From: a virus
Strand: one strand, 5' to 3'
Virus record (IMG/VR): IMGVR_UViG_3300025668_000745
Coordinates: 20,644 to 84,643 of that record
Length of the DNA: 64,000 bases
The notes under the pieces were generated by a model. It was not told the origin of the DNA. It worked only from the letters and a program-made list of their open reading frames with translations, and did not search any database. The translations under genes were made by a program, and so were the position numbers. Shown piece by piece: positions 16,295 through 55,155 of this stretch. Each line of letters starts with the position of its first letter. Within the stretch, counting starts at the first letter, position 1.

Positions 16295-16315
16295 TACGTA
16301 TAACGAGGAAAAGCA

Positions 16316-17375: not shown

Positions 17376-17404
17376 TTGACAAACTGTATTTAAGACTGTA
17401 TACT
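17376..17404 (+). promoter_or_regulatory. Sigma70-type promoter heading the enzyme island
   Basis: TTGACA (17376-81), 17-bp spacer, TATACT (17399-404); SD GGAG at 17413. Confidence 0.8.
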
Positions 17405-17423
17405 AACAGTATGGAGTATACGT

Positions 17424-17777
17424 ATGGATAAAAAACTTGAAGCAGCATTAGACTTTACTAATTATTCGCTTACATTAGAAAAACAAAAACTTATAGCAAA
17501 AAACCACTTCAAAAAATCTATTATTTTGAATTACGAAGGCGGTATGTTTACAGTATCGATGGAGTTATTGTCTTATTGTAAATTAATGGAAAAAGATAGC
17601 AACTACGAACAATACATTATTATTGACGATAATGATATCCCAATTGAAATAACAAACTTAGAAGAATTTTATACACAGGCTCGTAGGTTGTATTACAAAC
17701 ACTGTAAACAATATCTAAATGAGTATAAACGTTTAATTGGCAAAAGAGACGTAAAGGGTATTGTATTTGATGAGTAG
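17424..17777 (+). CDS. Hypothetical protein
   Basis: 117-aa ORF with promoter and SD; overlaps the next gene. Confidence 0.7.
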   Translation: MDKKLEAALDFTNYSLTLEKQKLIAKNHFKKSIILNYEGGMFTVSMELLSYCKLMEKDSNYEQYIIIDDNDIPIEITNLEEFYTQARRLYYKHCKQYLNEYKRLIGKRDVKGIVFDE

Positions 17778-18588
17778 CGGAGTATTGTTATTTGCAAGTA
17801 ATAATAAATCAGTTGATTATGTAAAGCAAGCTATTTTCCTTGCTAAACGCATACGCAAGTATATGGACTTGCCCACTTCGATTGTTACGACTGACAAAGA
17901 CTATAACATCGAACCCAGTGTGTTTGATAAGATCGTTTATGTTGATGATACAAAAAAGATTAATAATCGAATATATAATGATGCAGCTAAATCTATTACA
18001 TTAAATTTTAAAAATAATTTACGTCCGTTGGCGTACGATCTTTCACCGTATGATAATACTTTTTTAATGGATACTGATTATATAGTTTCCAGTAATTATT
18101 TAAAAGGTTTTTTGCAACAGTATGAGGATTTTTTAATTTTTAAAGATAGCATTAATATAGGATATGAAGATAATGCTGATACGTTTAAGTACATAGGTAA
18201 AAATAGTATTGACTTTTATTGGGCTACAGTAGTTTATTTTACTAAATCAAATAAGAATAAAGTATTTTTTGACTTATTAAAACATATACAAGAAAATTAT
18301 TATAATTATGCAGTAAATTATAACTTACAAAATACAATGTATAGGAACGATCATGCATTTAGTATTGCAATTCATATAATGAATAATTTTGGACAGTCTA
18401 ATCTTTTCAAAACTTTTCCAACTCCTATAATTTATACTTTAGACAAAGAAGAATTATTAGAAATTAACGATACAGAATTAACATTATTATCTCGAAACTC
18501 AGATAAAATTAATACTGTATTACATAAAACAAAAGACATAGATGTTCATGTAATGAATAAGTTTAGTTTAGAAAAGTTAATATCATGA
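17770..18588 (+). CDS. Glycosyltransferase-like protein (GT-A fold, GT8-like)
   Basis: GVLLFA..DYVKQA start, LSPYDNTFLMDTD DxD motif, RNDHAFSIA; paralog of the next ORF. Start placed at ATG 17770. Confidence 0.65.
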   Translation: MSSGVLLFASNNKSVDYVKQAIFLAKRIRKYMDLPTSIVTTDKDYNIEPSVFDKIVYVDDTKKINNRIYNDAAKSITLNFKNNLRPLAYDLSPYDNTFLMDTDYIVSSNYLKGFLQQYEDFLIFKDSINIGYEDNADTFKYIGKNSIDFYWATVVYFTKSNKNKVFFDLLKHIQENYYNYAVNYNLQNTMYRNDHAFSIAIHIMNNFGQSNLFKTFPTPIIYTLDKEELLEINDTELTLLSRNSDKINTVLHKTKDIDVHVMNKFSLEKLIS

Positions 18589-19439
18589 GTAAGGGTTTTC
18601 TGTTATTTGCTCAAAATAACTCAACAACAGATTATGTGCGACAAGCATATGCATTAGCATGTAGTATAAAAGCTACACAAAAAACTCACTCTAATGTTTG
18701 TTTAATTACTGATAAAAATGTTAGTGACAATTATTCAAAAGTTTTTGATCAAGTTATAGTAATACAGTCTGACGATGCATTAAACAGTGAATGGAAGATT
18801 GAAAATAGATATAAAATTTATGATCTTAGTCCGTATGAAGAAACTATTGTGTTAGATACTGATATGTTAGTATTATCAGATTTGTTAGACTACTGGCAAG
18901 ACTTTTCAACACACGATATTTGCTTTACTACTGATGTAAGAACATTTAGAAATAAACCTATAACAACTGGACTATGGTATTATAGAAAAGCATTTGTAAG
19001 ATTTGAGCTACCTAATACATATGTTGCACTACATTATTTTAAAAAGACAACTCTAACAAAGATGTTTGCAAAATATTTAGAAATTATTAATAAAAATTGG
19101 GAAGTAATATATGGTACATTTACAGGTGGCAATGCTTTTCAAAAATGGGCAAGTATTGATGTTAGTGCTGCATTAGCAATTCGAGTTTTAGATATTGAAA
19201 AGGAAGTTACTCCAAAGAATTCTGTAATTAATTTTACTCATATGAAAGTATACCATCAAGAGTTTGATAATTTGCAAAATAATTGGCAAGATTATATTAC
19301 TGCTTATATGACAGACGAATTAGAACTTTTTATTGGCAACTATAAACAAGGTGGAGTTTTTCATTATATTGAAGATTCGTTCTTAAGCGATAAAATTATA
19401 AAAAAATATGAAAAGTATTTGAATTATGCAGAATTATAA
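18585..19439 (+). CDS. Glycosyltransferase-like protein (GT-A fold, GT8-like)
   Basis: GFLLFA..DYVRQA, LSPYEETIVLDTDML DxD motif, C-terminal FTHMK/FHY. Confidence 0.7.
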   Translation: MSKGFLLFAQNNSTTDYVRQAYALACSIKATQKTHSNVCLITDKNVSDNYSKVFDQVIVIQSDDALNSEWKIENRYKIYDLSPYEETIVLDTDMLVLSDLLDYWQDFSTHDICFTTDVRTFRNKPITTGLWYYRKAFVRFELPNTYVALHYFKKTTLTKMFAKYLEIINKNWEVIYGTFTGGNAFQKWASIDVSAALAIRVLDIEKEVTPKNSVINFTHMKVYHQEFDNLQNNWQDYITAYMTDELELFIGNYKQGGVFHYIEDSFLSDKIIKKYEKYLNYAEL

Positions 19440-20001
19440 AAAGAGAATTTCCTATCTAAATAAAATTAATAATAAAGTACCTATCTGGTATTGCGAATAT
19501 GATAGCAAGTCTAACGATATTATATGTTTTACAACAATTGATAATAAAACATCTACACGAATTGAAGTTTCACATGACACTGCAATGAAGTTTAATAGTG
19601 GAGAAAAACATTTATATCAATATTTTGTCAATGTTGACAGTAATGCTGTTGAAATTAAACAACAGTTTTTAAAGCCTAAAACAACAAACTTTTTTGAAGT
19701 AATACAACAAACAGATATATGTGATATTATAATACAAAAGGACTACAAAAACAACAAGTGGAAATTTAGTTGTAATAATGTTGAGAACAACATTGACGGA
19801 TCATTACATTTCAGCATTACTCAGAAAGACAACCCAAATTTGCTATATAGAAGTATAACCATTTCTGTAAATGAGATAACTGATAATACTGTAGAAGTTG
19901 ACTTTACAGAACACGATAAAAACACTAAAGACTATAGTGTGTTCACAGTTAAAAAGTTTCAATCGTATACATTAGAGGAAAAACATGCATCAAACACTTA
20001 A
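19426..20001 (+). CDS. Hypothetical protein
   Basis: 191-aa ORF overlapping both neighbours. Confidence 0.65.
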   Translation: MQNYKKRISYLNKINNKVPIWYCEYDSKSNDIICFTTIDNKTSTRIEVSHDTAMKFNSGEKHLYQYFVNVDSNAVEIKQQFLKPKTTNFFEVIQQTDICDIIIQKDYKNNKWKFSCNNVENNIDGSLHFSITQKDNPNLLYRSITISVNEITDNTVEVDFTEHDKNTKDYSVFTVKKFQSYTLEEKHASNT

Positions 20002-21601
20002 AGTAAAAGATTTAGATATAATATATCTATCTTACGATGAACCAAACGCAGAAAAAAATTATGAAGACTTACTTACAAAAGTGCCTTGGGCAAAGCGTGT
20101 ACACGGAGTAGAAGGCAGCGATGCCGCACACAAAGCATGTGCTAAACTTAGTAATACAGATCGATTTATTACTATAGACGGTGACAACATAATTAATCCT
20201 AAGTTTCTGCAAGAAGAAATATATTTCTATGATGGTGCAGATATCGACAAGGCTGTTATTAGTTGGACTGCTAAAAATTCAATTAACAATTTAATGTATG
20301 GTAATGGCGGCATTAAGTGTTGGCCAAAATCTCATGTTTTAAATATGCAAACACATGAAAATGCTGAACCAGATAATGTCAAAGCACAAGTCGATTTCTG
20401 CTGGGACATGGAGTACATACAACAAGATACTTGTTATTCGATGATAATGAATAATTATACTCCTCATCAAGCGTGGCGTGCTGGGTTTCGTGAAGGGGTT
20501 AAGATGGCACTCAACGAAGGAACACAACTATCTAAAGACGGATTGTTATCTCAACATTGGAAAAATCTAAATAGACTCTATATTTGGACAATGGTCGGCT
20601 GCGATACTATAAACGGCGACTGGGGAATACTTGGGGCAAGAGCAGGTTTGTATATGGCTATGTGTACAGATTGGGATTTTATACAAGTAAGAGATTTTGA
20701 ACATTTAAACGACTTATGGAAACAGTCCTTTGAATCGATTGAAAACGTTGAAGATGAAATTGTTGAATACGGTATCAAACTCATTAATGCACTTGATCTT
20801 CCAATTGCTGAAAATCCGTTATCAGCTCAACAGAGTAAATTCTTCAAAACAGTGTATCGAAACCCTCCAAGATTAATATCGCCTAAAGTTGTCAAAGCAT
20901 CTCCAGTAGCAAAAACAGAATACGATATTGTAATGATAACATATAACGAAGAATATATGAATCAAAACTACAAGAGATTATTAGAAAGATTTCCTTATGC
21001 AAAGCGTATACACGGAGTAGATGGAATTCATAATGCACATATAAAAGCAGCAGAGCTATGCACAACTGATATGATTTGGATAGTTGACGGTGATGCTGTT
21101 ATTGACGACGATTTTAATTTTAACTATGCAGTTCCTAAATGGGATTTAGACACAGTGCATGTATGCAATAGTAAAAATCCTATTAATGATTTAATTTACG
21201 GTTATGGTGCTATTAAACTATTTCCGAGAGAACTTACTCTTAATATGGATAAGTCTAAGCCGGATATGACTACAAGTATAAGTAATAAATTTAAAAAAGT
21301 ATACGAAATAAGTAATATTACTGAATTTAATACAAGTCCGCTAAACACTTGGAAAAGTGCATTTAGAGAATGTTGTAAACTTTCAAGCAAAGTAATAGAC
21401 AGACAAAAAGACGACGAAACAAACGAACGATTAAATATTTGGTGTACAGTTGGCAACGACAGACAATACGGAGAATATGCAATCGATGGTGCCAACGAAG
21501 GCAGAAAATACGGAGAATACTATCGTGATTCACTGCAAGATCTGCGTAGAATAAATGATTTTATGTGGTTAGAGGAGAGATTTAATGAGCATTACAAATA
21601 A
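19985..21601 (+). CDS. Tandem two-domain glycosyltransferase-like protein (GT-A/GT2-like)
   Basis: Two homologous halves, each with a DGD (DxD) motif: AKRVHGVEG..IDGDNII and AKRIHGVDG..VDGDAVI. Confidence 0.7.
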   Translation: MHQTLKVKDLDIIYLSYDEPNAEKNYEDLLTKVPWAKRVHGVEGSDAAHKACAKLSNTDRFITIDGDNIINPKFLQEEIYFYDGADIDKAVISWTAKNSINNLMYGNGGIKCWPKSHVLNMQTHENAEPDNVKAQVDFCWDMEYIQQDTCYSMIMNNYTPHQAWRAGFREGVKMALNEGTQLSKDGLLSQHWKNLNRLYIWTMVGCDTINGDWGILGARAGLYMAMCTDWDFIQVRDFEHLNDLWKQSFESIENVEDEIVEYGIKLINALDLPIAENPLSAQQSKFFKTVYRNPPRLISPKVVKASPVAKTEYDIVMITYNEEYMNQNYKRLLERFPYAKRIHGVDGIHNAHIKAAELCTTDMIWIVDGDAVIDDDFNFNYAVPKWDLDTVHVCNSKNPINDLIYGYGAIKLFPRELTLNMDKSKPDMTTSISNKFKKVYEISNITEFNTSPLNTWKSAFRECCKLSSKVIDRQKDDETNERLNIWCTVGNDRQYGEYAIDGANEGRKYGEYYRDSLQDLRRINDFMWLEERFNEHYK

Positions 21602-22484
21602 AGAATTTTTACATGGATTACAAGAATATAGTGAATTTAAGACAGAAGGTTCGGTTGCACGAAATGTAAAATCTTTCTTAGATATCCTATATGCAGAGGA
21701 TCAAAAGTCTGCTTTTGTTAATCATTTCTTACCAAAAGATCTTGCAAATATTTACGGATCTGATAATTTTGAGCAAGACCTTATTGTATATCTTTTAAAT
21801 AATTATGAAGGCAACGATACTCGTTATTTTAGATTTATTAAGGACTTTATCAAAAAAGATAAAGACATGAATATACTCTCAGATGCATTAAGTAGAAGCC
21901 AAATCAAGAGTAAGATATGGTTAGTAAATGAGCTTGAAAAAATATCTAATCATTATGGCAATGTTGTACTATTAGCTGGTTGGTACGGACAGTTAGTTGA
22001 GTTGTTTGGAGATAGTGTAGACAAGATTACATTTAAAAAATTTAGAAACGTTGAAATTGATATAGATGCATGTAATGAAAGTGACTATAATTTTAACTTA
22101 CGTCGAATAGATGATTACAAAGTAAAATCTATACACGGCGATATTAATAATCTTAATCTGCACGGAAGCGGATATCAGTGGGACGTAGAAAATTTTAAAA
22201 CTGAAGAAAAATATAATGAGCAATTTTACCCAGACCTAATTATAAACACAAGTGCTGAACATATGACAACTGAATGGTTTAATCAAATTAGATTTAACCC
22301 TTGGAAAGATCATAAACCTATTGTTGCTATACAAAGTAATAATTATTTTGACTTAGAAGAACACGTAAATTGCGTACATAGTATTAATCATATGAAAAAA
22401 CTATTTCCTATGAGTAAAATATTATATGAAGGTGAATTACAACTTAAAGGTTATAAGAGAGTTATGTTGATCGGTGAAGCATAA
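21585..22484 (+). CDS. Class I SAM-dependent methyltransferase-like protein
   Basis: VVLLAGWYG motif-I-like glycine loop, acidic VEIDID after strand 2, DLIINTSAEH. Confidence 0.55.
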   Translation: MSITNKEFLHGLQEYSEFKTEGSVARNVKSFLDILYAEDQKSAFVNHFLPKDLANIYGSDNFEQDLIVYLLNNYEGNDTRYFRFIKDFIKKDKDMNILSDALSRSQIKSKIWLVNELEKISNHYGNVVLLAGWYGQLVELFGDSVDKITFKKFRNVEIDIDACNESDYNFNLRRIDDYKVKSIHGDINNLNLHGSGYQWDVENFKTEEKYNEQFYPDLIINTSAEHMTTEWFNQIRFNPWKDHKPIVAIQSNNYFDLEEHVNCVHSINHMKKLFPMSKILYEGELQLKGYKRVMLIGEA

Positions 22485-23158
22485 TGAAACGAATACTATG
22501 TATCGGCGACAGTCATACTGCTGGACATAATAGACGCACTAACGTATCTGGCCCTGACGATATTGTAACTCCTAAGAATTGGTCAGCCTATTTACAAAAA
22601 ACATTTCGTAATTCAGAAGTTTGGAATTTATCATTATCAGGTTCAAACAACTTTTTCTCTGGTATAATACTTGATAGTTTTTTAGAAACTTATACTCCTG
22701 ATGTAGTAATTTATCAGATATCTGATCATAGAAGATTTATAAAAATAAAACGTACAACTAAATTAAATTTATTAGAAAGTACAAATTGTGTTGCTCCTAA
22801 TTATTATGCATTACAAAGACGACCTTTCCCCTTTGGAATGATGGTTAGTCCACAGAGCTTTTCATCTGCATCACGTAAAGAGATAATTCGGCTGTATACA
22901 GCGTTATCTGATGACGACATTGTATATTTAAATAGTATTGCAGTAGAAAGGAATCTTCTAAAATTACAGAATATTCCACATTACGCATTTTATTGGCGCA
23001 AAGAAGATGCTGTTATTACAGGCTACGACAGTGTAGATGATATATTAGGATCACAATTTCATAGTTTTGTTGAAGACAACGGATGTCACTTAAATACTAC
23101 AGGACACGGACTTGTTTACAATAACATTATTCATACAAAGGTAGTAAACTTACTATGA
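22484..23158 (+). CDS. SGNH/GDSL hydrolase-like protein
   Basis: ILCIGDSHTAG (block I), NLSLSGS (block II), C-terminal DNGCHL..GH. Confidence 0.7.
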   Translation: MKRILCIGDSHTAGHNRRTNVSGPDDIVTPKNWSAYLQKTFRNSEVWNLSLSGSNNFFSGIILDSFLETYTPDVVIYQISDHRRFIKIKRTTKLNLLESTNCVAPNYYALQRRPFPFGMMVSPQSFSSASRKEIIRLYTALSDDDIVYLNSIAVERNLLKLQNIPHYAFYWRKEDAVITGYDSVDDILGSQFHSFVEDNGCHLNTTGHGLVYNNIIHTKVVNLL

Positions 23159-23382
23159 TAGATTTAAAAGATCTCCCTGTTAGGGAATTACAAAAAGAAA
23201 GTGCAAGAGCTCTAAGTACAATACAAGCAACTAACAATAATATTTGGCAGTTTAATAAAAAAGCTCATCACAATAGTCATAATTGGTATTGTGCTGTAAT
23301 AGACTGGTATATTGATCAATATGGAGATTTGCCCAGTAAAGCAGGCCCTGGTAAAGATGTAAAATTGGTGTTAGATGTATGA
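23155..23382 (+). CDS. Small hypothetical protein
   Basis: 75 aa with 4-nt overlaps on both sides. Confidence 0.65.
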   Translation: MIDLKDLPVRELQKESARALSTIQATNNNIWQFNKKAHHNSHNWYCAVIDWYIDQYGDLPSKAGPGKDVKLVLDV

Positions 23383-24011
23383 GAAAAAATGTATTCTGTT
23401 TTGGATGCAGCTTTACTAACGGTATCCATTTTGCCCAAAAAGACTGGAGAGCTTCATATCCGTATCAGCTATCTCTACTCATGCCGGACGTAGATGTTTA
23501 TAATCTTGGGGTATCTGGTGGAAATAATATACTGAATGATATGATAATAAAAAAAGCACTTGAGGAGTATTCCGTAGATTTTTCTATTGTACAGTTTACA
23601 TTTCCAAATAGATTTTATATTTCGTTATCTGATAGTTCTGAAAAAATAGGTATTAGGTACGGGGTTAAGCAGCTAAGTGATAATTATTACTTGTTATCCA
23701 AAGAGTACATAGCAGAATATTTTAATATTTTTACGCCAAGCTACTTGAAAAGCAATGTTCAAAGGATTAAGCAACTGTATAAATTACTACCAAAAAGACA
23801 AATAGCTCATATAAATGAAACAGCTTATTTGTCAACATTATATAGATTAAAAGACTTGCATCATTATACTTGGTCTTGGAACGAAGACACGTTAGGCACT
23901 AATGTAGTACCTAATAGCCTAAAATTAGAAAAATTTGATGACGGTACTGGACATTTGACTCAAAAAGGTAATCGGGTACTTGCAGGCTATTTAAAAGGTG
24001 AAATAGCATAA
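23379..24011 (+). CDS. SGNH/GDSL hydrolase-like protein
   Basis: VFCFGCSFTNG, NLGVSGG, C-terminal DGTGHL..GN. Confidence 0.65.
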   Translation: MRKNVFCFGCSFTNGIHFAQKDWRASYPYQLSLLMPDVDVYNLGVSGGNNILNDMIIKKALEEYSVDFSIVQFTFPNRFYISLSDSSEKIGIRYGVKQLSDNYYLLSKEYIAEYFNIFTPSYLKSNVQRIKQLYKLLPKRQIAHINETAYLSTLYRLKDLHHYTWSWNEDTLGTNVVPNSLKLEKFDDGTGHLTQKGNRVLAGYLKGEIA

Positions 24012-25094
24012 ATGTATAGATACGAAGACATCAAAGAAGTACACTTAGAAATTACGCAAAAGTGTCAAGCGGCCTGTCCTATGTGCGATCGTAACATGAA
24101 TGGCGGAGATGATAATCCTCATATTACAAATGCAGAACTTAGTTTAGAAGATGCAAAAAGAATGTTTAGTCCTGCTTTTATAAAGCAATTAAATGTTATG
24201 TATATGTGCGGCAACTTAGGAGATCCTATTGTTGCTAAAGATACGCTTGAAGTATTCAAATATTTCCGCGAACATAACGATAAGATATGGTTGAGCATGA
24301 ATACTAATGCTGGAGCCAAGAGTGCTGAATGGTGGACAGAACTTGCAGGAGTTATTGGTCGCAAGGGAGCAGTAATTTTTAGTGTAGACGGTTTAAAGGA
24401 TACAAATCATTTATATCGACAGAACGTTGTTTGGAATAATGTTGAACGTAACATGCGAGCATTTATTAATGCTGGAGGCAGAGCCCGTTGGGACTTCTTA
24501 ATTTTTGCACACAATGAACATCAAGTAGATGAAGCAGAAGCACTTGCTACTCAGTGGGGATGTGAAAAGTTTATCAAGAAAAAATCAGGTAGATTTATTA
24601 CAAGTGATATTAAACCTAAAACATCTCATCAAGCAATAAATCGTAAAGGGGCTGAAACACAAAACTTAGCACAGCCTAAAGATGAAAAGAATAAAAACAT
24701 AGCACTACTAAAACAAAAAGAAATTGAAAAGTCTTATGGTAGTATGAAAGAGTATTTAGATAAGTGCAGTATTACTTGTAAAGTTGCAAACCAAGGAAGT
24801 ATTTTTGTAACAGCAGAAGGACTTTTAATGCCGTGTTGTTGGACTGCTGGACGTATGTACAAATGGTGGCATGCAGATCCCCGTGTAGAACAGGTATGGG
24901 ATCATATAGATAATGCTGGCGGAAAACAAGGCATAAGTATTATAGACAATGACATTAAACACGTGGTTAATGGAAAATTAATAGATAGTATCACTGCAAG
25001 TTGGCAAAAAAATAGTATTGCTGACGGAAAACTTGGCGTTTGCGCTCAAAAATGCGGTAGTGAATTTGACCCGTATAAGGAGCAATTTGTATGA
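24012..25094 (+). CDS. Radical SAM protein with C-terminal SPASM/twitch domain
   Basis: CQAACPMC; CGNLGDP; FSVDG; C-terminal C..SIFVTAEG..PCCW..CAQKC. Confidence 0.9.
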   Translation: MYRYEDIKEVHLEITQKCQAACPMCDRNMNGGDDNPHITNAELSLEDAKRMFSPAFIKQLNVMYMCGNLGDPIVAKDTLEVFKYFREHNDKIWLSMNTNAGAKSAEWWTELAGVIGRKGAVIFSVDGLKDTNHLYRQNVVWNNVERNMRAFINAGGRARWDFLIFAHNEHQVDEAEALATQWGCEKFIKKKSGRFITSDIKPKTSHQAINRKGAETQNLAQPKDEKNKNIALLKQKEIEKSYGSMKEYLDKCSITCKVANQGSIFVTAEGLLMPCCWTAGRMYKWWHADPRVEQVWDHIDNAGGKQGISIIDNDIKHVVNGKLIDSITASWQKNSIADGKLGVCAQKCGSEFDPYKEQFV

Positions 25095-25807
25095 TATACG
25101 TAGGCGGCGACAGCTATGCATATGGATCAGAATTATTAGATATATCAAATCGTTTTGGTGATATTGTATCAGATGCTATGGGAACAACAAATCAAAACGA
25201 TGCAATAGGCGGCGCAAGTAATCAAAGAATTTACCGTAAATTTTTTGAAGCGTTTGATCCTAATAAATTTTCACATGTAATTTTAGGATGGACTGGCCTA
25301 AACAGATTTGAACATTATTCTGTCTTTGATCAAGATTATGACGGTTATAGAAGAATAACTGCACATCGATTACTTCCTTCTAACAAACATGAAGATTACA
25401 TAGATGAAAAACTTAGAAAAAGAATCGCAAAATTGCGAGATGATGTAAAGGTATCTAAAGAAAATAAAGTATTATTGCAGTACATGGCTAATGTACGTAC
25501 TGACAGAGTTATACATGCTGAAATTTTAAATATGATACTGCAAGTACAAAGGATGTGTAAATATACTGACACAAAATTATGCATGTTTTTTGGAGTACAG
25601 AATAATATCATAAAATTCAATGAATTAATAACAGATCATTTAATGTACAATAGTGTAGACTGGAATGATACATGGCTTTATCAACCAGATTATTCTTTAC
25701 AGGAATGTATGAATGATTTAAAATTACCAATAGGCCCAGGGAAACACTTTTTAGAAGAAGGCCATCAAGTTGCTGCTGACAAAATATTGGAGCATTTTAG
25801 TGTCTGA
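25091..25807 (+). CDS. SGNH hydrolase-like protein
   Basis: IYVGGDSYAYG, GGASNQRI, GPGKHFLEEGH. Confidence 0.65.
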   Translation: MIYVGGDSYAYGSELLDISNRFGDIVSDAMGTTNQNDAIGGASNQRIYRKFFEAFDPNKFSHVILGWTGLNRFEHYSVFDQDYDGYRRITAHRLLPSNKHEDYIDEKLRKRIAKLRDDVKVSKENKVLLQYMANVRTDRVIHAEILNMILQVQRMCKYTDTKLCMFFGVQNNIIKFNELITDHLMYNSVDWNDTWLYQPDYSLQECMNDLKLPIGPGKHFLEEGHQVAADKILEHFSV

Positions 25808-26820: not shown

Positions 26821-26821
26821 A

Positions 26822-39830: not shown

Positions 39831-39859
39831 TTGACTTTTGCAAACAAAGAATGTAATAT
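39831..39859 (+). promoter_or_regulatory. Sigma70-type promoter, probably giving a leaderless mRNA
   Basis: TTGACT, 17 bp, TAATAT; the ATG at 39866 is 6 nt after the -10 element; no SD. Confidence 0.55.
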
Positions 39860-39865
39860 ATTAAT

Positions 39866-41634: not shown

Positions 41635-41690
41635 TCAAATATGTATTATAACTAAACCGATATGCATAATTACTTATAAAGGAAGCAAAA

Positions 41691-42443: not shown

Positions 42444-42444
42444 T

Positions 42445-44332: not shown

Positions 44333-44366
44333 AAACATATTTAGTACACCATAAATACCCTATATG
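44330..44366. promoter_or_regulatory. Back-to-back divergent TAAATA late promoters, each 5-6 nt before an ATG
   Basis: Minus: CTAAATA-TGTTT-ATG(44332). Plus: ATAAATA-CCCTAT-ATG(44364). No SD on either side. Confidence 0.6.
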
Positions 44367-47901: not shown

Positions 47902-48298
47902 ACTGATAGAAAACCTGCCAGTAGAATATACTTTTGATAAAGAAGAAAGAATTATTTTATGCGGTGTTCCAGGACCATTTACACCAGGATGCTCTTCGAA
48001 ACACTTGCCTGGTTTTGCAAATAATTTACAAGAATTAAAAGATAAAGGTATTACTAAGGTTGTGTTTATTGCAGTTAGTAATGCATATGTTATGAACGCT
48101 TGGAATGAAAAGTTTGGACATGACGAGATTGATTGTATTGGAGATCCGTACGGAGAATACATTGAAGAAATATCACAAACAATGTGGAACCCTATGTTAG
48201 CAAGAGCATCTAATAGATTTGCTGTATTAATCGAGAATGGTAAAATTATAAAACAGTTTAACGACCCATTTGTTGAAGGTGTACTAAATGACCTTTAA
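47891..48298 (+). CDS. Peroxiredoxin (Prx5/redoxin family)
   Basis: VPGPFTPGCSSKHLPGF peroxidatic motif; VMNAW; RFAVLI. Confidence 0.85.
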   Translation: MLYKLIENLPVEYTFDKEERIILCGVPGPFTPGCSSKHLPGFANNLQELKDKGITKVVFIAVSNAYVMNAWNEKFGHDEIDCIGDPYGEYIEEISQTMWNPMLARASNRFAVLIENGKIIKQFNDPFVEGVLNDL

Positions 48299-49139
48299 AA
48301 CTACACACAATAATTACAGATTAGTTGATAATAATGATGTGCCTTTATATCATTATGACATTGATGATTACACAGCAAGAGAAAATGAATCTCACCAAGA
48401 ACACAAAAATTTAAACTATAAGTCGGCGTATGACGGATATAAAGGCGTAGTATGGACACCGTTAGATCTTCCGTTTTTAGATATAGATTTAGATCACCTT
48501 TGGAACGTTTGGCAAGATGTACATCAATATAAAAAAGAAGGATTGGCACAGCCTTGGTTTGACGAACGACCTGACGATATGAATAGTTCAAGGCATAGTG
48601 TATATACAGATCATGATTATAGAGCGCTAATTTGTTTTAAGAATACAGATTACTATTCTACTAATGTAAAAGGAGAATGGTATCAAGTTATTAGAGATGA
48701 ATTTCCACAAGTAGTTGACTTTTGTGAAAATCATTTACCTTTTGACAATTTAAGATTTGTAGCTTTTGCTGGTAGAGACGAACATGGAGTAGGACCTCAT
48801 TATGATGAAGATTACAAAAATAGACATAGACTTTTTGGACAAGAACCGAGTCAAATACGAATTCGTTGGAGTAATGTAACTACTCCAGAAACTGAACATT
48901 TATACTTTACTAACGATCATGCAAAAACAAGATTGTACCCTATGTTACCTAATGATACAAATGCAATGGCATGGGACGGGCAAGTACACGAACATGGTGC
49001 TGACAAAGGATATCATCCTACTGAAAGAATGATACTCATGCCTATGGGTACATTAAACATTAAAAAATGGCATGACTTGTTAGACAGAAGTATAGAAAAA
49101 TATAAAGATTATGTTATTACTGTGGATCATTTCAAATGA
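48288..49139 (+). CDS. Fe(II)/2OG dioxygenase-like protein
   Basis: VGPHYD; AWDGQVHEHGAD..RMIL. Confidence 0.55.
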   Translation: MTFKTTHNNYRLVDNNDVPLYHYDIDDYTARENESHQEHKNLNYKSAYDGYKGVVWTPLDLPFLDIDLDHLWNVWQDVHQYKKEGLAQPWFDERPDDMNSSRHSVYTDHDYRALICFKNTDYYSTNVKGEWYQVIRDEFPQVVDFCENHLPFDNLRFVAFAGRDEHGVGPHYDEDYKNRHRLFGQEPSQIRIRWSNVTTPETEHLYFTNDHAKTRLYPMLPNDTNAMAWDGQVHEHGADKGYHPTERMILMPMGTLNIKKWHDLLDRSIEKYKDYVITVDHFK

Positions 49140-50059
49140 TTATGAAAGGAGCAAACCTATCTACATTATTTCCTTCTGAAGCAAGTGCAGCAATAGCACA
49201 AGACGGTTATTTAGTTTTACAAAATACTGGCGCTTCACCTGAGGAGTTTGCAGAATGGTTTACAGATTTTGCGTATACACTAAGTCCTGATATATGGTGC
49301 AGTGATAAATCTCATAGTAGTCTATTTTGGAGAGTAACTAACCAAAATATTGATGAAAGAACACAAGGATTGTTTTCAAGCGATGATGTAGATTGGCATA
49401 CTGACTTAGCACCGATTATCGATTCACAAGAAGTTATTGGATTATACGGAAAGACAATAACATTTGATACAGAAACTTGGGTATGTTCAGCAGTTGAATA
49501 TTGGAACAGATTAGATGAAGAAACAAAATCTATGTATAAAGAACTTGTTGTAGAATTGTATCATGCCAGTATAAACAAAGATAAAGAATTATTTGAAACT
49601 AAGTGGCAAGTAGACTGGGACAAAGAATACCCACAAGAAATTATAGACGGTCTGAGAAAAAATAGACAACTAAGTCAAATACAAAATTGTACAAACATAA
49701 GTTTAGACAATGCAAAAAAATTTAATAAACATCGAGGACTTGTTGCAAAATATAATTTTGTTAGTAATCATCCGTTAGGTGCAGATAGTATATTTTTCCA
49801 CCCGCATTTGATTGTAGACTTATATAAAGAAAATCAGTCTATAATACAAGGAAAAGAAATATTTCAAACGATATATAGAGACTTAATAGAAAGCAATAAG
49901 TACACATATAAGCATAGATGGAAAGAAGGTGATATACTGTTAATAGATCAAATTAACACATTACACCGAAGAACAAAAGTTTACGAAGATAAGCCTCGTG
50001 AATTGTTAAGATGTGCAGGATGGTATAAGAACAGGAAACATTATAATTATGTCCTATGA
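49136..50059 (+). CDS. TauD/TfdA-family dioxygenase
   Basis: DWHTD; TWVCS; YKHRWKEGDILLIDQINTLHRR..RELLR. Confidence 0.85.
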   Translation: MIMKGANLSTLFPSEASAAIAQDGYLVLQNTGASPEEFAEWFTDFAYTLSPDIWCSDKSHSSLFWRVTNQNIDERTQGLFSSDDVDWHTDLAPIIDSQEVIGLYGKTITFDTETWVCSAVEYWNRLDEETKSMYKELVVELYHASINKDKELFETKWQVDWDKEYPQEIIDGLRKNRQLSQIQNCTNISLDNAKKFNKHRGLVAKYNFVSNHPLGADSIFFHPHLIVDLYKENQSIIQGKEIFQTIYRDLIESNKYTYKHRWKEGDILLIDQINTLHRRTKVYEDKPRELLRCAGWYKNRKHYNYVL

Positions 50060-50810
50060 TTTAATTTATGTAAACGGTGCATCTTATGAAGCAGGAGCTG
50101 GTTTGTGTCAGCATGAATATTTAACAGATGTAGAATTACAAAAATATCCTGAATGGTTAACTAATTTTCCAAAAATTATGACAGAAGAAAAAATGAAAGA
50201 ATTGTGGAATCTGTATGATAACGGATTAGAAGAAAGAGAAAAGCAGTGTGCCTGGCCTGCACATTTAAGTAGGATGACTGGTATTCCTGTACAAAATGAA
50301 GCTGTAGCAGGAGCCTCAGCTTCAACAACTGCAATTAAAACACTTGAAACAAATATGAAACAACACAAAGGCAAAAAAGTTTTGTATATAATTGGAGTGT
50401 GTCCTAATCAAGGAATTTGGTGGCCAGGTTCTGAAAGAGGAAATGATAGTATTCTTTTAAATCCGTACAGAAAATTTCCTAATACATTTGAAAGATTTAT
50501 TGCAGAACACATACGTGATAATGCTTCTCGAGAACAAGTAGATCATTTATATAACATTTCTTTCAAAGGACTGTATCTTTATCTAAAGGAAAGAAAAAGA
50601 GATTGTTATTTTGTTCACGCTGATTTTGGATTAGCAGACGGATCTTCAGGAAGAGCAAGAAGACCAATAACTGGATACTTAGACGAAATAGCACCAAACA
50701 TTGATCCTACAAAAGATAAAGTACTTACGGTATGCGGACATTATACAGAAGATGTCCATATCGAACTTGCTGAAAGAATAGCAAAGAAAATTGAAAGTGG
50801 CGAAATATGA
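50049..50810 (+). CDS. SGNH hydrolase-like protein
   Basis: IYVNGASYEAG, AWPAHL, NEAVAGAS, CGHYTEDVH. Start placed at ATG 50049. Confidence 0.6.
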   Translation: MSYDLIYVNGASYEAGAGLCQHEYLTDVELQKYPEWLTNFPKIMTEEKMKELWNLYDNGLEEREKQCAWPAHLSRMTGIPVQNEAVAGASASTTAIKTLETNMKQHKGKKVLYIIGVCPNQGIWWPGSERGNDSILLNPYRKFPNTFERFIAEHIRDNASREQVDHLYNISFKGLYLYLKERKRDCYFVHADFGLADGSSGRARRPITGYLDEIAPNIDPTKDKVLTVCGHYTEDVHIELAERIAKKIESGEI

Positions 50811-51418
50811 AAAAACAAAACTTACCTACAATAGCAAATTTAAATCTAAATATTGATTTAGAAAGGTTGCGAAGTGCAACTGATAAATTAGCAGAAGAAT
50901 TTGTAAATGTACGTGCAGCTAATCCTGGATTGTGCATGAATCATGAAGAATTAGTTAAAGATGTTTACGATAACTTTGAACAAATTAATTTAACTACACC
51001 CAGTGAAGTCTTGCCACATACAGCAAGTATTAAAGAACGACTACGGCGTAGGGAAGAACATTTATATAATGTACCAACTGAAGATTATATTGGAAGTTAC
51101 TTTGAAGAAATAGTAACACAATGTAAAGCACCAGCAAGTCGTATACGTATTACTAAACTTGCTCCTGGCAAAACTATACCTTTCCACGTAGACTACGATG
51201 TAAGCTACGCTGTACGCTGTATAGTACCTGTATACGGTGGTAGTAATGTTGTAAACTTATTTAAACGTGATGGAAAACTTGAAGCGTATAATCTCGAAGA
51301 CGGTACTGCTAATTTCCTCAACATAGGATATCCACATGCTGTTGTGAACATGAGCGATAAGCCTCGTATAGCACTAATGTTTAGTTTGGACGGTACTGAT
51401 GACATCACAAGTTTATAA
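50807..51418 (+). CDS. Aspartyl/asparaginyl beta-hydroxylase-like Fe(II)/2OG oxygenase
   Basis: RIRITKLAPGKTIPFHVD; FLNIGYPHAVVN..PRIALM. Confidence 0.8.
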   Translation: MKKQNLPTIANLNLNIDLERLRSATDKLAEEFVNVRAANPGLCMNHEELVKDVYDNFEQINLTTPSEVLPHTASIKERLRRREEHLYNVPTEDYIGSYFEEIVTQCKAPASRIRITKLAPGKTIPFHVDYDVSYAVRCIVPVYGGSNVVNLFKRDGKLEAYNLEDGTANFLNIGYPHAVVNMSDKPRIALMFSLDGTDDITSL

Positions 51419-52187
51419 TTATACAGATACAGAATTAAAAGACCTTGCAACTAAAATACAAACGCAAGGCCTGTCAATACTTCATGAACAACAGTTTACT
51501 GAATCACAGATTGTAGAATTCTTTAAACGCATAGGCGAGTGCGAAGCACCTGGCTTGTTTATGAATCCTAAAGATCACCCAGAGTTATTCTTAGTGTCAG
51601 ACAGAAAAGATGAACACGGTAACAAGACAGGAATGTTTGGCGGTGGCGAACTTGGGTGGCATTCAAACGGTAATAGCAGACATCTTATTGATAAGATTCT
51701 TATTGGACTATACTGCGTCAAAGGTGATCCAAATACAACTCTTAGCGTATGTAATACAAGCGATCCGTTTTATGACTTGTCAGAAGAGGATCAAGCATAC
51801 TGGAAAAGCATTACAATTAGATTAAAGTTTCAAAACGATACAATGTATCACTTAGACGATGACGATCCGGAACTTGAGTTTATGAGTAAGAACAAGGGTA
51901 GTATTAGACCGTTAGTTGGAACACACCCGCATACAGGCAAAGACTATTTCTACTTTCCTTATCACTTTATTATTAAAGCATGGCAAGGTAAAACTCCAGT
52001 AGACCATAACGAAATAATTGAACGCTTAAAACCTATTATATTTAAAAGCCGCTATCAAACACATCACGTATTTGCCGAGGGCGATCTATTAATGATGGAT
52101 CAGTTTACTACATTGCACAGACGTACACCTGTTATGGGCGATAGGTTATTGTGGAGATTAGCAAGTGACTACTCAAACATGGCATAG
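51399..52187 (+). CDS. TauD/TfdA-family dioxygenase (HxN variant)
   Basis: ELGWHSNG; RPLV..HP.TG; HVFAEGDLLMMDQFTTLHRR..RLLWR. Confidence 0.8.
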   Translation: MTSQVYNYTDTELKDLATKIQTQGLSILHEQQFTESQIVEFFKRIGECEAPGLFMNPKDHPELFLVSDRKDEHGNKTGMFGGGELGWHSNGNSRHLIDKILIGLYCVKGDPNTTLSVCNTSDPFYDLSEEDQAYWKSITIRLKFQNDTMYHLDDDDPELEFMSKNKGSIRPLVGTHPHTGKDYFYFPYHFIIKAWQGKTPVDHNEIIERLKPIIFKSRYQTHHVFAEGDLLMMDQFTTLHRRTPVMGDRLLWRLASDYSNMA

Positions 52188-52689
52188 AATTTTTGACGTT
52201 GATTACAATATTGATAAAGTATTAGTTTGGGCAAGAAAACTACAATTAAGTAAGCCAGGTATTCCTATGCAAAACAAAACTTCTCTTAATACTGTAGATC
52301 TTGGTGAAGACCAGTATTACTGGGAAGGAGAGTTTCCTAAACAAGAGTTTGATATATTCAATGACATTATTTGTTTAGACGGAAAATTTAGAGGAATCGA
52401 AACAAGTTGCTCTTTATGGGAGTATCAGTCTCATACTACGCTGCTGCCACACATACACGATACTGAAGAATTAATCGGAGGAGTACTAATTGTTCCGTTA
52501 ATTGGAAATTTTAAAACAAGTATATATCAAGGAGATAAAGAAATCGATAGTGTTGAATATTCTCCAGGTAAGTTATTTTTTGTAAAAGGAAAAGAATTTT
52601 TGCACGGCGGCGAAGCTATAGATGGTTATAGATTAGCTGCATTATTGTACATAAAAAAGGATGTAAACTTGGATGATTATATAATATGA
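52165..52689 (+). CDS. Cupin / 2OG oxygenase-like protein
   Basis: LLPHIHD, LIVPL, FLHGG..YRLA; GTG start after GGAG. Confidence 0.55.
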   Translation: MTTQTWHRIFDVDYNIDKVLVWARKLQLSKPGIPMQNKTSLNTVDLGEDQYYWEGEFPKQEFDIFNDIICLDGKFRGIETSCSLWEYQSHTTLLPHIHDTEELIGGVLIVPLIGNFKTSIYQGDKEIDSVEYSPGKLFFVKGKEFLHGGEAIDGYRLAALLYIKKDVNLDDYII

Positions 52690-53324
52690 ATGTTGTAGGT
52701 ATAAGTTTTAGTCACGCTGAAAATAGTTTACAGACACGGGGATTGTATCTTATGCAAGATATATTGCCTATTAATACAGTATGTGACATGACTAACTATA
52801 ATATTCCAATGTGCAGTTCGAATAAAAGTGACGGCGTTGTTCCGCAATCGGTTGACAATTTGATAAGCGTAATGGAAAGTGCTGATGTTTTAATTTTTGC
52901 TATAAGCGAAGCAACTGGACATTACTGTGCTGGATTTAAAAATGTAATGGACTGGTTAGTAGTAAAGGCAAAATTTAATGCACGCCTTGGAACTGATTAT
53001 GCTATTACAGATACACCCATTTTTGTAGTAACATTTACTCCTGCTAAGAATGAAAATGTTGGAAATAGACATTTTGCAATGACTGTAGATCTACTGGAAA
53101 AGCTGGGAGCAAAGGTACAAAAGACGTCTGTAATACCAGATTCTTGGAAAACTGTAATTCCGGGACATTCCGCCGCAGTAAAACCAGTCTGTCGTGTGAT
53201 TAGTGATTTTCTAAAGTTATATACGCCGAATAGTATAACGACACGTAAAAAAGATGACACCGATAGTTTACATTGGTTAACCAACTACAACGAATGGGAT
53301 ATGAAATGGAAGTCAATAGATTAA
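52686..53324 (+). CDS. Flavodoxin-fold NAD(P)H-dependent FMN reductase-like protein (paralog of 45190)
   Basis: VVGISFS; ADVLIFAISE..AGFKNVMDWL; TFTP..G.RH shared with 45190. Confidence 0.7.
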   Translation: MNVVGISFSHAENSLQTRGLYLMQDILPINTVCDMTNYNIPMCSSNKSDGVVPQSVDNLISVMESADVLIFAISEATGHYCAGFKNVMDWLVVKAKFNARLGTDYAITDTPIFVVTFTPAKNENVGNRHFAMTVDLLEKLGAKVQKTSVIPDSWKTVIPGHSAAVKPVCRVISDFLKLYTPNSITTRKKDDTDSLHWLTNYNEWDMKWKSID

Positions 53325-53968
53325 ACGGAATACCGTGGCCTCGATGGCATACTACGCCGCCAAAAGAACTTATCAAGGTTCCGTTGAAAGAAGAATATGC
53401 ATTACACACTATGGACTATTTAGATACTCCTGAAGCAAGATGTATTTTTGAAAAACAAGCTCAAATTATAATTGATAATAATATACAGGGTATAGTTGAT
53501 ATAGGTTGTCGCATTGGCATAGTAAACGATATACTACAAGAATTAAATTATAAAAATTATACATATATGGGGTTTGATACTTCAAGTGAGCCTATTACGT
53601 TTGCAAATAATAAGTATAAGGATTATAAAAATATAGAATACAGACAGGCAAGTATGTATTCAAAAAAAGATATTACTGTATCTTTTGATGTAGATTGTGT
53701 AATATGGAGCGGAGTATTATTATATGCACCCGACACACATTTAGAGTTATTTGACGATTTGACGTATAATTTTTATAATAGTAAACATGCTATTATTCAA
53801 GAACCATGTAGTAATCAAGATTCAAACAAGTTTCTTGACAATATTGAATTAAACACTATTGAAAAAGATTTACATTTATATGAAAACAAATATAATAATT
53901 ATAAAGAATGTATAGTTAATGCTAATATCTTTTCAGGACGTAGGAAAATAGTACACATATGGAAATAA
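53306..53968 (+). CDS. Class I SAM-dependent methyltransferase
   Basis: IVDIGCRIG, YMGFD, DCVIWSGVLLY. Start placed at ATG 53306. Confidence 0.75.
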   Translation: MEVNRLNGIPWPRWHTTPPKELIKVPLKEEYALHTMDYLDTPEARCIFEKQAQIIIDNNIQGIVDIGCRIGIVNDILQELNYKNYTYMGFDTSSEPITFANNKYKDYKNIEYRQASMYSKKDITVSFDVDCVIWSGVLLYAPDTHLELFDDLTYNFYNSKHAIIQEPCSNQDSNKFLDNIELNTIEKDLHLYENKYNNYKECIVNANIFSGRRKIVHIWK

Positions 53969-54513
53969 GAATAATACCTTACATAGTTGACGGCGAAGAA
54001 AATAAAAAATTATCTAACAACGATTTAAATATTTGCCGTATTGCTATAGATAATATGAAAACACAATCAAAAAAAGATAGACTTTTTAATAATTACAATC
54101 AATATTTAAAATTAGATACTATGGCTATGTATTGCGTTGCTGTTGATAAAAATAAACCTGTAATGTGTACAGGTGCTCAGCATATAAGCAAACATTGTTG
54201 TAGACTGTTTAGTCGTTATTATTTGTTTGATGATTATCGAACATCTCATGTCAGTAATTTATACGATAAGGTTGATAATTTTCAAACAGACTTATACATG
54301 CAACATGCATTAAAAAACAAGTATAAATTATTCTTTTGGAGTCGAGACAAAGGAACAGGATTTTTTAAAAAAATTAAAAACGCAAGACCTGATATATTTA
54401 AAAATTGGACAGTGTATGATACAATGATAGAATTATTATGGAAGGATAATTTTCAGGGTATTATCTATACAGGTGATATAACGTATATTGACGAGTTAAC
54501 GATTAACAAATAA
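53959..54513 (+). CDS. Hypothetical protein, possibly GNAT acyltransferase fold
   Basis: V..KPVMCTG..RLFSRYYLFDDYR resembles the GNAT beta4 region; weak match. Confidence 0.4.
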   Translation: MEIRIIPYIVDGEENKKLSNNDLNICRIAIDNMKTQSKKDRLFNNYNQYLKLDTMAMYCVAVDKNKPVMCTGAQHISKHCCRLFSRYYLFDDYRTSHVSNLYDKVDNFQTDLYMQHALKNKYKLFFWSRDKGTGFFKKIKNARPDIFKNWTVYDTMIELLWKDNFQGIIYTGDITYIDELTINK

Positions 54514-55131
54514 CTTTTCAGCAATCCATCCACCAGTGTCCCACTTGTGTAATCTTACTTTGCGAAAGTTGTTGTGATGCTGTCTATGAAATCCTTCTCC
54601 AGCAATAAAGAAGTTAAGCCACGGAACATCTGCTCCGCCTTCTACTTTATGTCCTACTGTATTAAGTAAACCAAATCCTATTTTAGCAAATACAAATGGC
54701 GTTGCGCAAAAAGCAATCCAAAACAATGGACTAATTATAAAGCTCGCTACATTTACTATGATTAGTATTTTTAACCAATGCTTATGACAAAATACTAATC
54801 TTGGATTAGCATATAAGTCACGTGCATATTTCATTGGTATTTTAGGTATACTCCAAGTAGTAAGCAAAACTTTCCAATAGCCTACGTGATTAGCAGCATG
54901 TGGATCATGTTCTGTATCACTGTGAGCATGATGCATTCTGTGACTGGCAATCCAACCAATAGGAGTACGAATACATGCTATCATTAGCATTGCTAAGCCG
55001 ATAGTCTCAAACCATACTGGTACATTAAATTGTTTGTGGCAATAGTATCGATGTAATAGTATACTGGCACCCCAATGACTGATCACTTGGCTCCATAAGA
55101 TGCCTATAACTAATGCGATTAAAATTTCCAT
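54496..55131 (-). CDS. Membrane fatty-acid (acyl-lipid/acyl-CoA delta-9-like) desaturase
   Basis: Three His boxes HRYYCH, HRMHH(AHSD..DPH) and GEGFHRQHH, plus NTVGH and hydrophobic segments. Confidence 0.85.
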   Translation of the reverse strand: MEILIALVIGILWSQVISHWGASILLHRYYCHKQFNVPVWFETIGLAMLMIACIRTPIGWIASHRMHHAHSDTEHDPHAANHVGYWKVLLTTWSIPKIPMKYARDLYANPRLVFCHKHWLKILIIVNVASFIISPLFWIAFCATPFVFAKIGFGLLNTVGHKVEGGADVPWLNFFIAGEGFHRQHHNNFRKVRLHKWDTGGWIAEKLFVNR

Positions 55132-55155
55132 TTGTACTCCTACAAATGTATTTAT
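55129..55155 (-). promoter_or_regulatory. Late promoter ATAAATA followed by a perfect 8-bp hairpin enclosing the SD and pairing the AUG
   Basis: Minus strand reads ATAAATA-CATTTGTA-GGAG-TACAAATG. Confidence 0.7.

Follow-up and report, generated by a model that had tools for sequence, protein, structure and literature searches.

Pelagimyophages and cyanomyophages carry, in the structural region of their genomes, a hypervariable host recognition cluster (HRC) with a mean length of 44.6 kb (Zaragoza-Solas et al., 2020; PMC7029224). In the parts of that account drawn on here, the cluster contains tail fibers, glycosyltransferases (GTs, of which GT8 is the commonest), UDP-glucose dehydrogenase and other sugar-nucleotide genes, and cassettes of radical S-adenosylmethionine (rSAM) genes that differ between close relatives (PMC7029224). 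A marine T4-like genome of 183 kb, TARA_ERS488813_N000010, is credited with 12 rSAM genes in the relevant passage of another study (Nishimura et al., 2017; PMC5332604). Here, we describe an island of enzyme genes, rich in rSAM genes and placed between virion fiber genes, in the IMG/VR virus record IMGVR_UViG_3300025668_000745. The stretch of DNA analyzed, referred to as the window, comprises 64,000 nucleotides and corresponds to bases 20644-84643 of this 84.6-kb record, whose CheckV completeness is 24%. Judged by its sequence, the island belongs to the hypervariable HRC class of marine T4-type phages, and we give about an even chance to the proposal that it is a soluble workshop in which the phage would build and decorate a glycan or glycoconjugate.

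The window opens with a 3439-aa virion protein and u2, followed by u3-u5 and u6. The island proper consists of 43 open reading frames (ORFs; 117-538 aa) packed into positions 17424-55131, and is framed by the following genes:

10959..17368, plus strand: u3-u6, the upstream flank, with three paralogous collar-type fiber genes (u3-u5) and fiber-like u6, by PHROG tail families
55173..56933, minus strand: d1, the downstream flank, a fiber with an Mtd_N domain (PF18454, E 6.2e-10)

The N-terminal ~300 aa are common to u3, u4, and u5, and a phage tail Collar domain is found in u3 (10959-12977; E 1.7e-16). Within the island, 40 ORFs lie on the plus strand and three on the minus strand (i25, 40974-41606; i28, 43121-44338; i43, 54496-55131), and only five gaps reach 15 nt or more. 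The initial annotation had described this region as a set of tailoring enzymes inserted between tail genes, and that description is confirmed, with Collar-type fibers on one side and the Mtd_N fiber on the other; the gene order that it gave is also roughly right.

The island is not an assembly artifact, because a locus from another sample (L001) is collinear with it over 21.4 kb at 97.7% nucleotide identity, and contigs from a seawater run of another study span 30 of 30 bins of window 26000-45999. Most proteins of L001 are 98-100% identical to those of the window, with lower values for i13, i28, i30, and i31 (94-96%) and for i23 (89%). Window 33000-42000 is partly present in 20 of 24 runs among the matches listed, 17 of which hold at least half of its words; these runs represent 12 studies, and two of the rows may be the source itself. 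Contigs from RNA libraries in two runs of the probable source study fall on i19/i20, i23, and i24, covering 3 and 5 of 30 bins, which is no proof of transcription. One contig from a seawater run of another study joins across i23 (window 38822-39797), which would drop that rSAM gene; with only 25 nt on one side, the joint is too weak to count.

The key feature of the island is its set of 15 intact rSAM genes, a number that a six-frame search also returns. All 15 cores retain the CX3CX2C motif, and 13 pass the cutoff of Pfam PF04055 (29.5 bits), the remaining two being i9 (27.3 bits) and i17 (22.8 bits). They fall into three families (A, B, and C) and one singleton, i32:

24012..25094, plus strand: i9, family B, with C-terminal twitch/SPASM-type cysteines; a core gene (Radical_SAM just below the cutoff)
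25770..26820, plus strand: i11, an rSAM core, and i12, a separate twitch/SPASM ORF that overlaps it by 8 nt and aligns to residues 282-387 of i20
27558..33706, plus strand: i14-i18, five rSAM genes with an N-terminal twitch module (NF033640, 226-258 bits; motifs intact)
33678..34889, plus strand: i19, family C, with a Cys-rich C terminus
34882..36108, plus strand: i20, family B
36109..38830, plus strand: i21, the universal and most conserved rSAM gene, and i22 (NF033640, 418 and 373 bits)
38796..40984, plus strand: i23 and i24, family C; i24 is a core gene
43121..44338, minus strand: i28, an rSAM gene with an N-terminal twitch module (NF033640, 162.8 bits, just below 170; motifs intact)
46393..47901, plus strand: i32, an rSAM gene with a long N-terminal domain, B12-class-like (Radical_SAM, 52 bits)

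Family A (i14-i18, i21, i22, and i28) corresponds to NCBIfam NF033640 (N_Twi_rSAM), in which the twitch module is N-terminal. Seven of its eight genes exceed the 170-bit cutoff of that model, at 226-418 bits and over the full model length. The N-terminal module is marked by four cysteines that are invariant in an alignment of the eight sequences (C11, C29, C92, and C95 in i21 numbering); i14 has a single Cys where the other members have CC. In family B (i9, i11, and i20), an auxiliary module of the same kind lies at the C terminus or, in the case of i11/i12, in an ORF of its own. A split of the i11/i12 type is also present in a sibling contig (G402, 163492-164413), and it is thus a kept arrangement rather than a fresh break. 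Family C (i19, i23, and i24) has Cys-rich C termini and matches the MoaA and viperin models below threshold only. More generally, the sub-threshold NCBIfam matches of the rSAM genes include MoaA, viperin, and BlsE, all far below their cutoffs, and i32 scores 55-60 bits against PhpK-family and lipid B12-rSAM models, again far below the respective cutoffs. The rSAM paralogs are 22-33% identical to one another (22-30% among i14-i18) and are therefore old, distinct enzymes, not recent copies. A phmmer search with i21 found no match among PDB sequences. This gene has 3833 homologs at E<=0.001, with 81-90% identity among the 120 matches listed, and the Atlas clusters nearest to it are 88-100% viral; by these clusters, NF033640 as a whole appears to be largely viral.

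Similar islands can be compared over 60-80 kb from each of four further large contigs; together with the window's own, the five records cover 24-72% of each genome. The order giant protein, u2, u3, u4, u5, u6, island, d1, d2-d7 and beyond is shared by all four, with island sizes of ~56, 28, 36.5, and 49 kb. The rSAM matches number 19, 17, 8, 12, and 14 per record in five records, against 15 in the record of the window. The initial annotation had proposed that related contigs be checked for an island that is always adjacent to tail genes and varies in its paralog count, and this is what the four further contigs display, each with 8-19 rSAM matches. Eight genes are found in all four siblings: i1, i2, i3, i5, i6, i9, i21, and i24. 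The i1 homolog stands at the island start in each (32-42% identity), and identities in the four contigs reach 63-85% for i9, 85-90% for i21, and 85-87% for i24; the backbone proteins u2 (73-80%) and d6 (78-83%) are less conserved than i21 and i24. Among 80 loci fetched with i21 as the query, i21 is present in 80. These loci and the window contain 347 family-A ORFs within 10 kb of i21, which form 96 clusters at 50% identity; the i21 cluster is the only universal one and the other 95 are rarer. Six of the eight family-A genes of the window have a partner in L001 only. Because eight genes are kept in all four contigs and only one of the 96 clusters is universal, the architecture is that of a conserved core with a very large, swappable periphery.

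The remaining ORFs of the island, together with the evidence for their assignments, are as follows:

17424..17777, plus strand: i1, a small protein at the island head, with no Pfam match
17761..19439, plus strand: i2 and i3, GT8-like (GT-A) candidates, paralogous at E 1e-12, neither with a Pfam match
19426..20001, plus strand: i4, with a sub-threshold Pfam match only and weak homologs in two siblings (G402 and G404)
19985..21601, plus strand: i5, two tandem GT2-like halves with a DGD motif in each; the consensus shows an internal repeat
21585..22484, plus strand: i6, a possible class-I methyltransferase (Atlas lead score 0.95; Methyltransf_31 in 21% of cluster members)
22484..24011, plus strand: i7 and i8, an SGNH-like pair of paralogs with GDS and GCS in block I (Lipase_GDSL_2, E 6e-4, below the cutoff)
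25091..25807, plus strand: i10, SGNH-like, a paralog of i13 with a GDS block and a weak DUF6071 match
26822..27571, plus strand: i13, SGNH-like (sub-cutoff matches to Lipase_GDSL_2, E 3e-4, and to DUF6071, E 1.4e-4)
40974..41606, minus strand: i25, a nitroreductase-family flavoprotein (PF00881, E 2.5e-8)
41691..43152, plus strand: i26 and i27, with HxD...H spacing like that of 2-oxoglutarate (2OG) oxygenases, this motif pattern being the sole evidence; no Pfam match
44364..45197, plus strand: i29, a short protein resembling pyridoxal phosphate (PLP) aminotransferases (profile match to fold-type-I aminotransferases, E 6e-4, in the SxSK region)
45190..46403, plus strand: i30, FMN reductase family (PF03358, E 3.8e-8), and i31, without a match
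47891..48298, plus strand: i33, a redoxin (PF08534, E 1.4e-18)
48288..53324, plus strand: i34-i40, comprising TauD-family i35 and i38, i37 of the Asp/Arg hydroxylase family, FMN reductase i40, and i34, i36, and i39
53273..54513, plus strand: i41, a class-I methyltransferase, and i42
54496..55131, minus strand: i43, membrane desaturase/hydroxylase-like (FA_desaturase, E 3e-8; three hydrophobic segments)

With regard to the GT labels of the initial annotation, matches of GT type exist for i2, i3, and i5, all of them weak. A joint profile of i2 and i3 retrieves 19 glycogenin (GT8) sequences from the PDB (best E 0.0035), with the match confined to ~113 residues at the N terminus. For i5, the Pfam GT2 model scores 23.2 bits against a cutoff of 23.3 (E 7e-5), and 5 of 49 relatives match GT2 (E<=0.001) and no other family; the i5 family as a whole comprises 1836 representative clusters at E<=0.001. 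An alignment of i5 with i2/i3 by hhalign gave no relation. Many relatives encode i5 and i6 as a single fused protein (1023-1127 aa in some ORFs; 814-936 aa in other homologs). Conversely, three sibling contigs have a gene of its own for each half of i5, with rSAM genes inserted between the two in every case. One of these (G402:C1) has the halves at 139035-139973 and 155720-158281, with sugar-nucleotide genes in between as well and the second half fused to extra domains. The SGNH-like ORFs number four (i7, i8, i10, and i13), each assigned through sub-cutoff matches or paralogy, and i36 has a GAS start resembling block I. The only long gap of the island, the 220 nt that separate i7 from i8, contains an unassigned ORF of ~75 aa at 23155-23382. 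The searches assigned no family to nine ORFs (i1, i4, i26, i27, i31, i34, i36, i39, and i42); one of these, i42, had been labeled GNAT-like, a label that found no support in the Pfam search.

A sugar theme emerges from the sibling islands and from bacterial relatives of the rSAM genes. Of the ORFs in the four sibling islands, 85 lack a counterpart in the window, and a Pfam census covered 82 of them, leaving aside three that straddle locus borders. Nucleotide-sugar families are represented by two ORFs of Epimerase/GDP_Man_Dehyd type and by one each of UDPG_MGDP_dh, DegT, RmlD_sub_bind, and FkbM methyltransferase, and an ORF located between the i5 halves of one sibling (G402, 143469-144434) matches GDP-mannose 3,5-epimerase over its full length (E 2e-102). 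Other families in the census are tryptophan halogenase, IMPDH-family, TctA, AMP-binding, SET, and GNAT, together with four weak QueC-like matches.

The survey for NF033640 in bacteria covered one phylum, that of the Crocinitomicaceae genome discussed below, and the cutoff was reached in 4 of 401 genomes and in 0 of 14 control genomes. Small NF033640 clusters occur at three Bacteroidota loci (L096, G080:C2:1208000-1227999; L097, G152:C6:33000-52999; L098, G284:C8:93000-112999). On one chromosome, four NF033640 genes are accompanied by genes for a protein of SGNH-like type, a fusion of methyltransferase and GT2, and a GT-C-like protein. A second chromosome carries two NF033640 genes beside PhyH, WelO5-like, and methyltransferase genes and a gene for an 842-aa protein (L096/G080) with a fiber-type S74 chaperone domain and a type IX secretion system (T9SS) signal. 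Companions of glycan or oxygenase type are thus present at two of the three loci (L096 and L097), and B12-rSAM-like genes at L096 and L098. These clusters represent a counterpart of the phage island in cells. The initial annotation had found no nucleotide-sugar synthesis, which holds for this window but not for the sibling islands; its broader idea of sugar chemistry is borne out by those sibling genes and by the GT2, GT-C-like, SGNH, and oxygenase genes of the bacterial rSAM clusters. In a crude hydropathy scan of 43 + 182 ORFs from the five islands, four contain hydrophobic segments, namely i43, its homolog in G404, one ORF with eight transmembrane (TM) segments, and one with a single TM segment. 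The island proteins are nearly all soluble, and the chemistry is therefore expected to be cytoplasmic.

Expression signals set the array apart from the fibers that surround it. The following element lies at its head:

17376..17404, plus strand: sigma-70-like promoter, TTGACA-N17-TATACT, located in the 55-nt space ahead of i1 (11/12 matches, the best in a 20-kb scan)

A like sigma-70 site is found ahead of the i1 homolog in four of five contigs, and another lies in the 35-nt gap before i24. The sites before i1 and i24, of the form TTGAC-N17-TAnnnT, resemble the sites found ahead of d6 and d10, two genes of replication type, and the head of the array is in this respect unlike the structural genes. 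For the latter, the shorter TAAATA box was used, because the whole window contains a single exact copy of the T4 late box TATAAATA against 15.4 +/- 3.7 expected, a strong avoidance. TAAATA precedes u2, u5, u6, and d1, all structural genes, by 17-30 nt (17-22 nt for u2, u5, and u6); inside the island, the only genes with the box at such a distance are i25 (21 nt) and i43 (17 and 27 nt), both on the minus strand. This pattern suggests that the rSAM array may be an early unit set between late genes. It counts against simple co-transcription with the fibers and fits all three of the macromolecular targets considered below, namely the virion, the host envelope, and DNA.

In the proposed glycan workshop, the conserved head i1-i6, which includes the GT8-like pair, the GT2-like protein with its two halves, and what is probably a methyltransferase, would attach sugars from nucleotide-sugars to an acceptor in the cytoplasm. 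The three conserved rSAM enzymes (i9, i21, and i24) would make or remodel the core sugar, which a strain-specific, swappable set of twitch-type rSAM enzymes, SGNH acyltransferases or esterases, Fe/2OG oxygenases, a PLP enzyme, and methyltransferases would then diversify. The FMN reductases, nitroreductase, and redoxin could feed electrons to the Fe-S enzymes or protect them, and the main array would probably be read from early promoters of sigma-70 type. We infer each chemical step and the acceptor; gene content, motifs, position, the core-plus-variable pattern, and the sugar-nucleotide genes of the siblings are observed. As acceptor, we tentatively favor the neighboring virion fiber proteins, for which position is the one argument. 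It is a rather doubtful possibility that marine jumbo phages put unusual chemistry, on glycan or protein, onto their own receptor-binding fibers by means of dozens of swappable rSAM subfamilies; epimerized, deoxygenated, or C-methylated sugars are candidate outcomes in that case.

Several observations weigh against the glycan interpretation. The GT2 score of i5 is 0.1 bit short of the Pfam cutoff and 44 of 49 relatives match nothing; two i5 profiles (A2 and A6) matched no solved structure in the PDB, and hhalign of profile A6 to true GT2 gave a probability of 4%. The methyltransferase label of i6 is a lead only, with a negative hhalign comparison to i41 and no useful PDB match for its profile (A3). 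The window itself contains no nucleotide-sugar gene, and the halogenase, IMPDH, TctA, AMP-binding, SET, GNAT, and QueC-like matches of the siblings are at odds with a simple glycan story. Hyperplastic regions of T4-type phages gather unrelated genes, and adjacency to fibers may mean a merely permissive site. The mixture of rSAM, B12-like rSAM, 2OG hydroxylase, and methyltransferase genes also fits peptide tailoring. Finally, 107 sigma-70-like sites were found where 105 are expected, and they may be chance occurrences in AT-rich DNA, so that the promoter argument rests on position and conservation.

The alternative that survives best, though we consider it unlikely, is that the island remodels the host envelope, altering the lipopolysaccharide (LPS) or lipooligosaccharide core, the O-chain, or membrane lipids soon after infection begins, for example so that superinfection is blocked. 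Modification of the O-chain is the published explanation for comparable islands, itself a proposal in the portion of that work used here (PMC7029224), and the initial annotation had listed envelope remodeling as an alternative. The GT8-like appearance of i2 and i3, the Asp/Arg hydroxylase family of i37, the desaturase-like membrane protein i43, and the early-type promoter-like sites are all in keeping with it, as is the bacterial analog in which a GT2 and a GT-C-like protein are paired as in periplasmic glycosylation. The solubility of the island proteins leaves this alternative standing, because peripheral LPS-core transferases require no membrane helices. In the hydropathy scan of five islands, however, no polytopic protein resembling a flippase, polymerase, or initiating transferase was seen, so that a Wzx/Wzy- or ABC-type locus is not recognizable; the 8-TM ORF is probably the TctA match. 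In addition, slow rSAM chemistry of single-turnover type would be ill-suited to a bulk surface polymer within one infection cycle.

It is also conceivable, but improbable, that proteins or peptides are tailored directly, the side chains or backbones of fibers or of a peptide being epimerized, C-methylated, hydroxylated, or cross-linked, with sugars as a side theme. The enzyme mix parallels the tailoring sets of peptides that ribosomes synthesize and that are modified after translation (RiPPs), such as that of the polytheonamide pathway. Many of the sub-threshold NCBIfam matches are to peptide maturases, the island includes members of the TauD and Asp/Arg hydroxylase families, and the fiber-type S74/T9SS protein adjoins one bacterial cluster (G080). 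Yet none of the five records contains a PqqD/RRE domain, in a search whose control was positive in four genomes and to which RRE-independent systems are not visible. There is almost no noncoding room for precursor genes, and the ORF at 23155-23382 is not precursor-like. Bona fide nucleotide-sugar enzymes inside the sibling islands, and SGNH partners that are typical of glycan chemistry, likewise point away from peptides.

Hypermodification of DNA, in which modified phage bases would be decorated to escape restriction, appears very improbable. Soluble GTs, early-type promoters, and nucleotide-sugar genes would fit glycosylation of DNA in the T-even manner, the sibling islands contain the four weak QueC-like matches (best E 8.5e-6), and the genomes in hand are 24-72% complete. 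However, TGT/DpdA was found in none of the five records, nor was Tet_JBP, for which the control was silent too. A thymidylate-synthase-family gene is present in one of the five, but it is ordinary-ThyA-like (330 bits, full length) and is separated from the island by ~50 kb. In a genome of ~350 kb, an rSAM turnover for every modified base would probably be costly.

Twitch rSAM enzymes occur in aminoglycoside pathways. Synthesis of a diffusible small molecule, aminoglycoside-like or another specialized metabolite, is nonetheless the least probable explanation, for although sibling islands contain a gene of the tryptophan halogenase family (E 8e-75), one for an AMP-binding enzyme, class III and IV aminotransferases, and an IMPDH-family gene, and a cyanophage trio of DegT-like, amidinotransferase, and rSAM genes is labeled "antibiotic synthesis genes" in the passage concerned (PMC12801897), no scaffold-forming enzyme was recognized in the window, the one exporter is a TctA-family ORF in a single sibling, and hypervariability and the fixed place between fiber modules would be left unexplained.

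The backbone that carries the island is that of a marine jumbo myovirus, so far uncultured, whose baseplate is Rak2/SCTP-2-like. This assignment follows from the kinship of its gp6-type wedge protein, which is nearest to those of the jumbo phages Salicola SCTP-2, Atu_ph07, and the Munch/7t3 group (~35% identity), and from relatives with the same genes that reach 256 kb at 72% completeness. Upstream (5′) of the window are SbcCD-like nuclease genes, a late sigma factor, the baseplate hub, and wedge proteins, and beyond the far side of the island lie replication-type genes (HNH-, ATPase-, and exonuclease-type). NF033640, the family that predominates in the island, is abundant in the ocean and well conserved there, as seen from the number and identity of the i21 homologs. 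Among isolate phages, window 25001-50000 has no megablast match, and tblastn of i14 and i21 gave only weak matches of 19-26% identity (Vibrio K566/K567 and three Ralstonia jumbo phages); in the K566 neighborhood, three rSAM genes lie among hypothetical proteins, away from fibers.

Two side observations concern possible hosts. A 927-bp stretch of the 3439-aa virion protein gene (window 6988-7914) shares 83% identity with a gene that occurs in 82 cyanophage records (among them S-RIM2 and S-RIM12), which suggests a recent exchange with cyanomyoviruses and offers a hint to the host; the rest of the backbone is jumbo-phage-like. In addition, a Crocinitomicaceae metagenome-assembled genome includes several short contigs with phage-type rSAM genes (L082; contigs C480, C457, C59, C187, and C30 of G001), on one of which the rSAM protein is 85% identical to i21. 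These contigs are probably phage DNA binned with the bacterium, a weak host hint and a possible clue.

Radical SAM enzymes catalyze some of the hardest reactions in biology, and identification of the substrate would open a new block of rSAM chemistry. It would also settle whether the role of the HRC is virion decoration, conversion of the host surface, or protection of DNA, and would explain the Fe-S assembly genes reported from such phages in the relevant part of one study (PMC5332604). If the target is the virion, no phage is known to modify itself by a system as elaborate as this island would be; if it is the fibers in particular, it would represent a combinatorial post-translational layer of host range and defense evasion that is new to viruses.

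Comparison with the HRC reveals the same general design, in that a hypervariable block of fiber, GT, and rSAM genes occupies the structural region and differs in size and content in all four siblings. The backbone is different, a Rak2/SCTP-2-like jumbo phage here and a ~150-kb pelagimyophage there; among the gp6 matches, no Pelagibacter or Synechococcus phage is found among the 10 commonest of the 16 first words or among the 12 of 93 records listed. The far boundary also differs, since the HRC is delimited by VrlC and the neck gene gp14, whereas replication-type genes follow the far side of this island. Furthermore, rSAM genes dominate here (15 of 43 ORFs), and the HRC paper, in the portions used, gives no account of rSAM families (PMC7029224). 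For TARA_ERS488813_N000010, the rSAM genes are cited in the corresponding portion only as Fe-S-related content beside Fe-S assembly genes, with no island, family, or function described (PMC5332604). NF033640 itself is cataloged without an assigned reaction, and seven of the eight family-A genes pass its curated cutoff.

The twitch/SPASM rSAM enzymes BtrN, MoaA, and viperin act on sugars or nucleotides. They share with the island enzymes an rSAM core and one auxiliary Fe-S module; the difference is that eight of the island genes have this module at the N terminus and one has it as a separate ORF. Another parallel is provided by the chlorella virus PBCV-1, whose A064R protein is, in the part of the source consulted, a soluble, early-expressed GT-GT-methyltransferase protein that builds the capsid glycan (PMC9614988). 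Its order of two GT domains and a methyltransferase may parallel the i5-i6 fusions, with i6 as a methyltransferase lead only. A conserved core with variable decoration would be common to both systems, and early expression matches the early-type promoters of the island. PBCV-1 is nevertheless a eukaryotic virus and has no rSAM enzymes. In a literature search, no publication was found in which such rSAM arrays are given a function, although supplementary tables (for example, Table S1E of PMC5332604) may list the genes. The existence of such islands is already published (PMC5332604; PMC7029224). What is new here is the jumbo-phage backbone, the scale of the rSAM content, and the contrast between a core of extreme conservation and rare subfamilies that number about a hundred, together with the auxiliary Fe-S module that is placed in three different ways, the cellular analogs, and the early-type promoter pattern.

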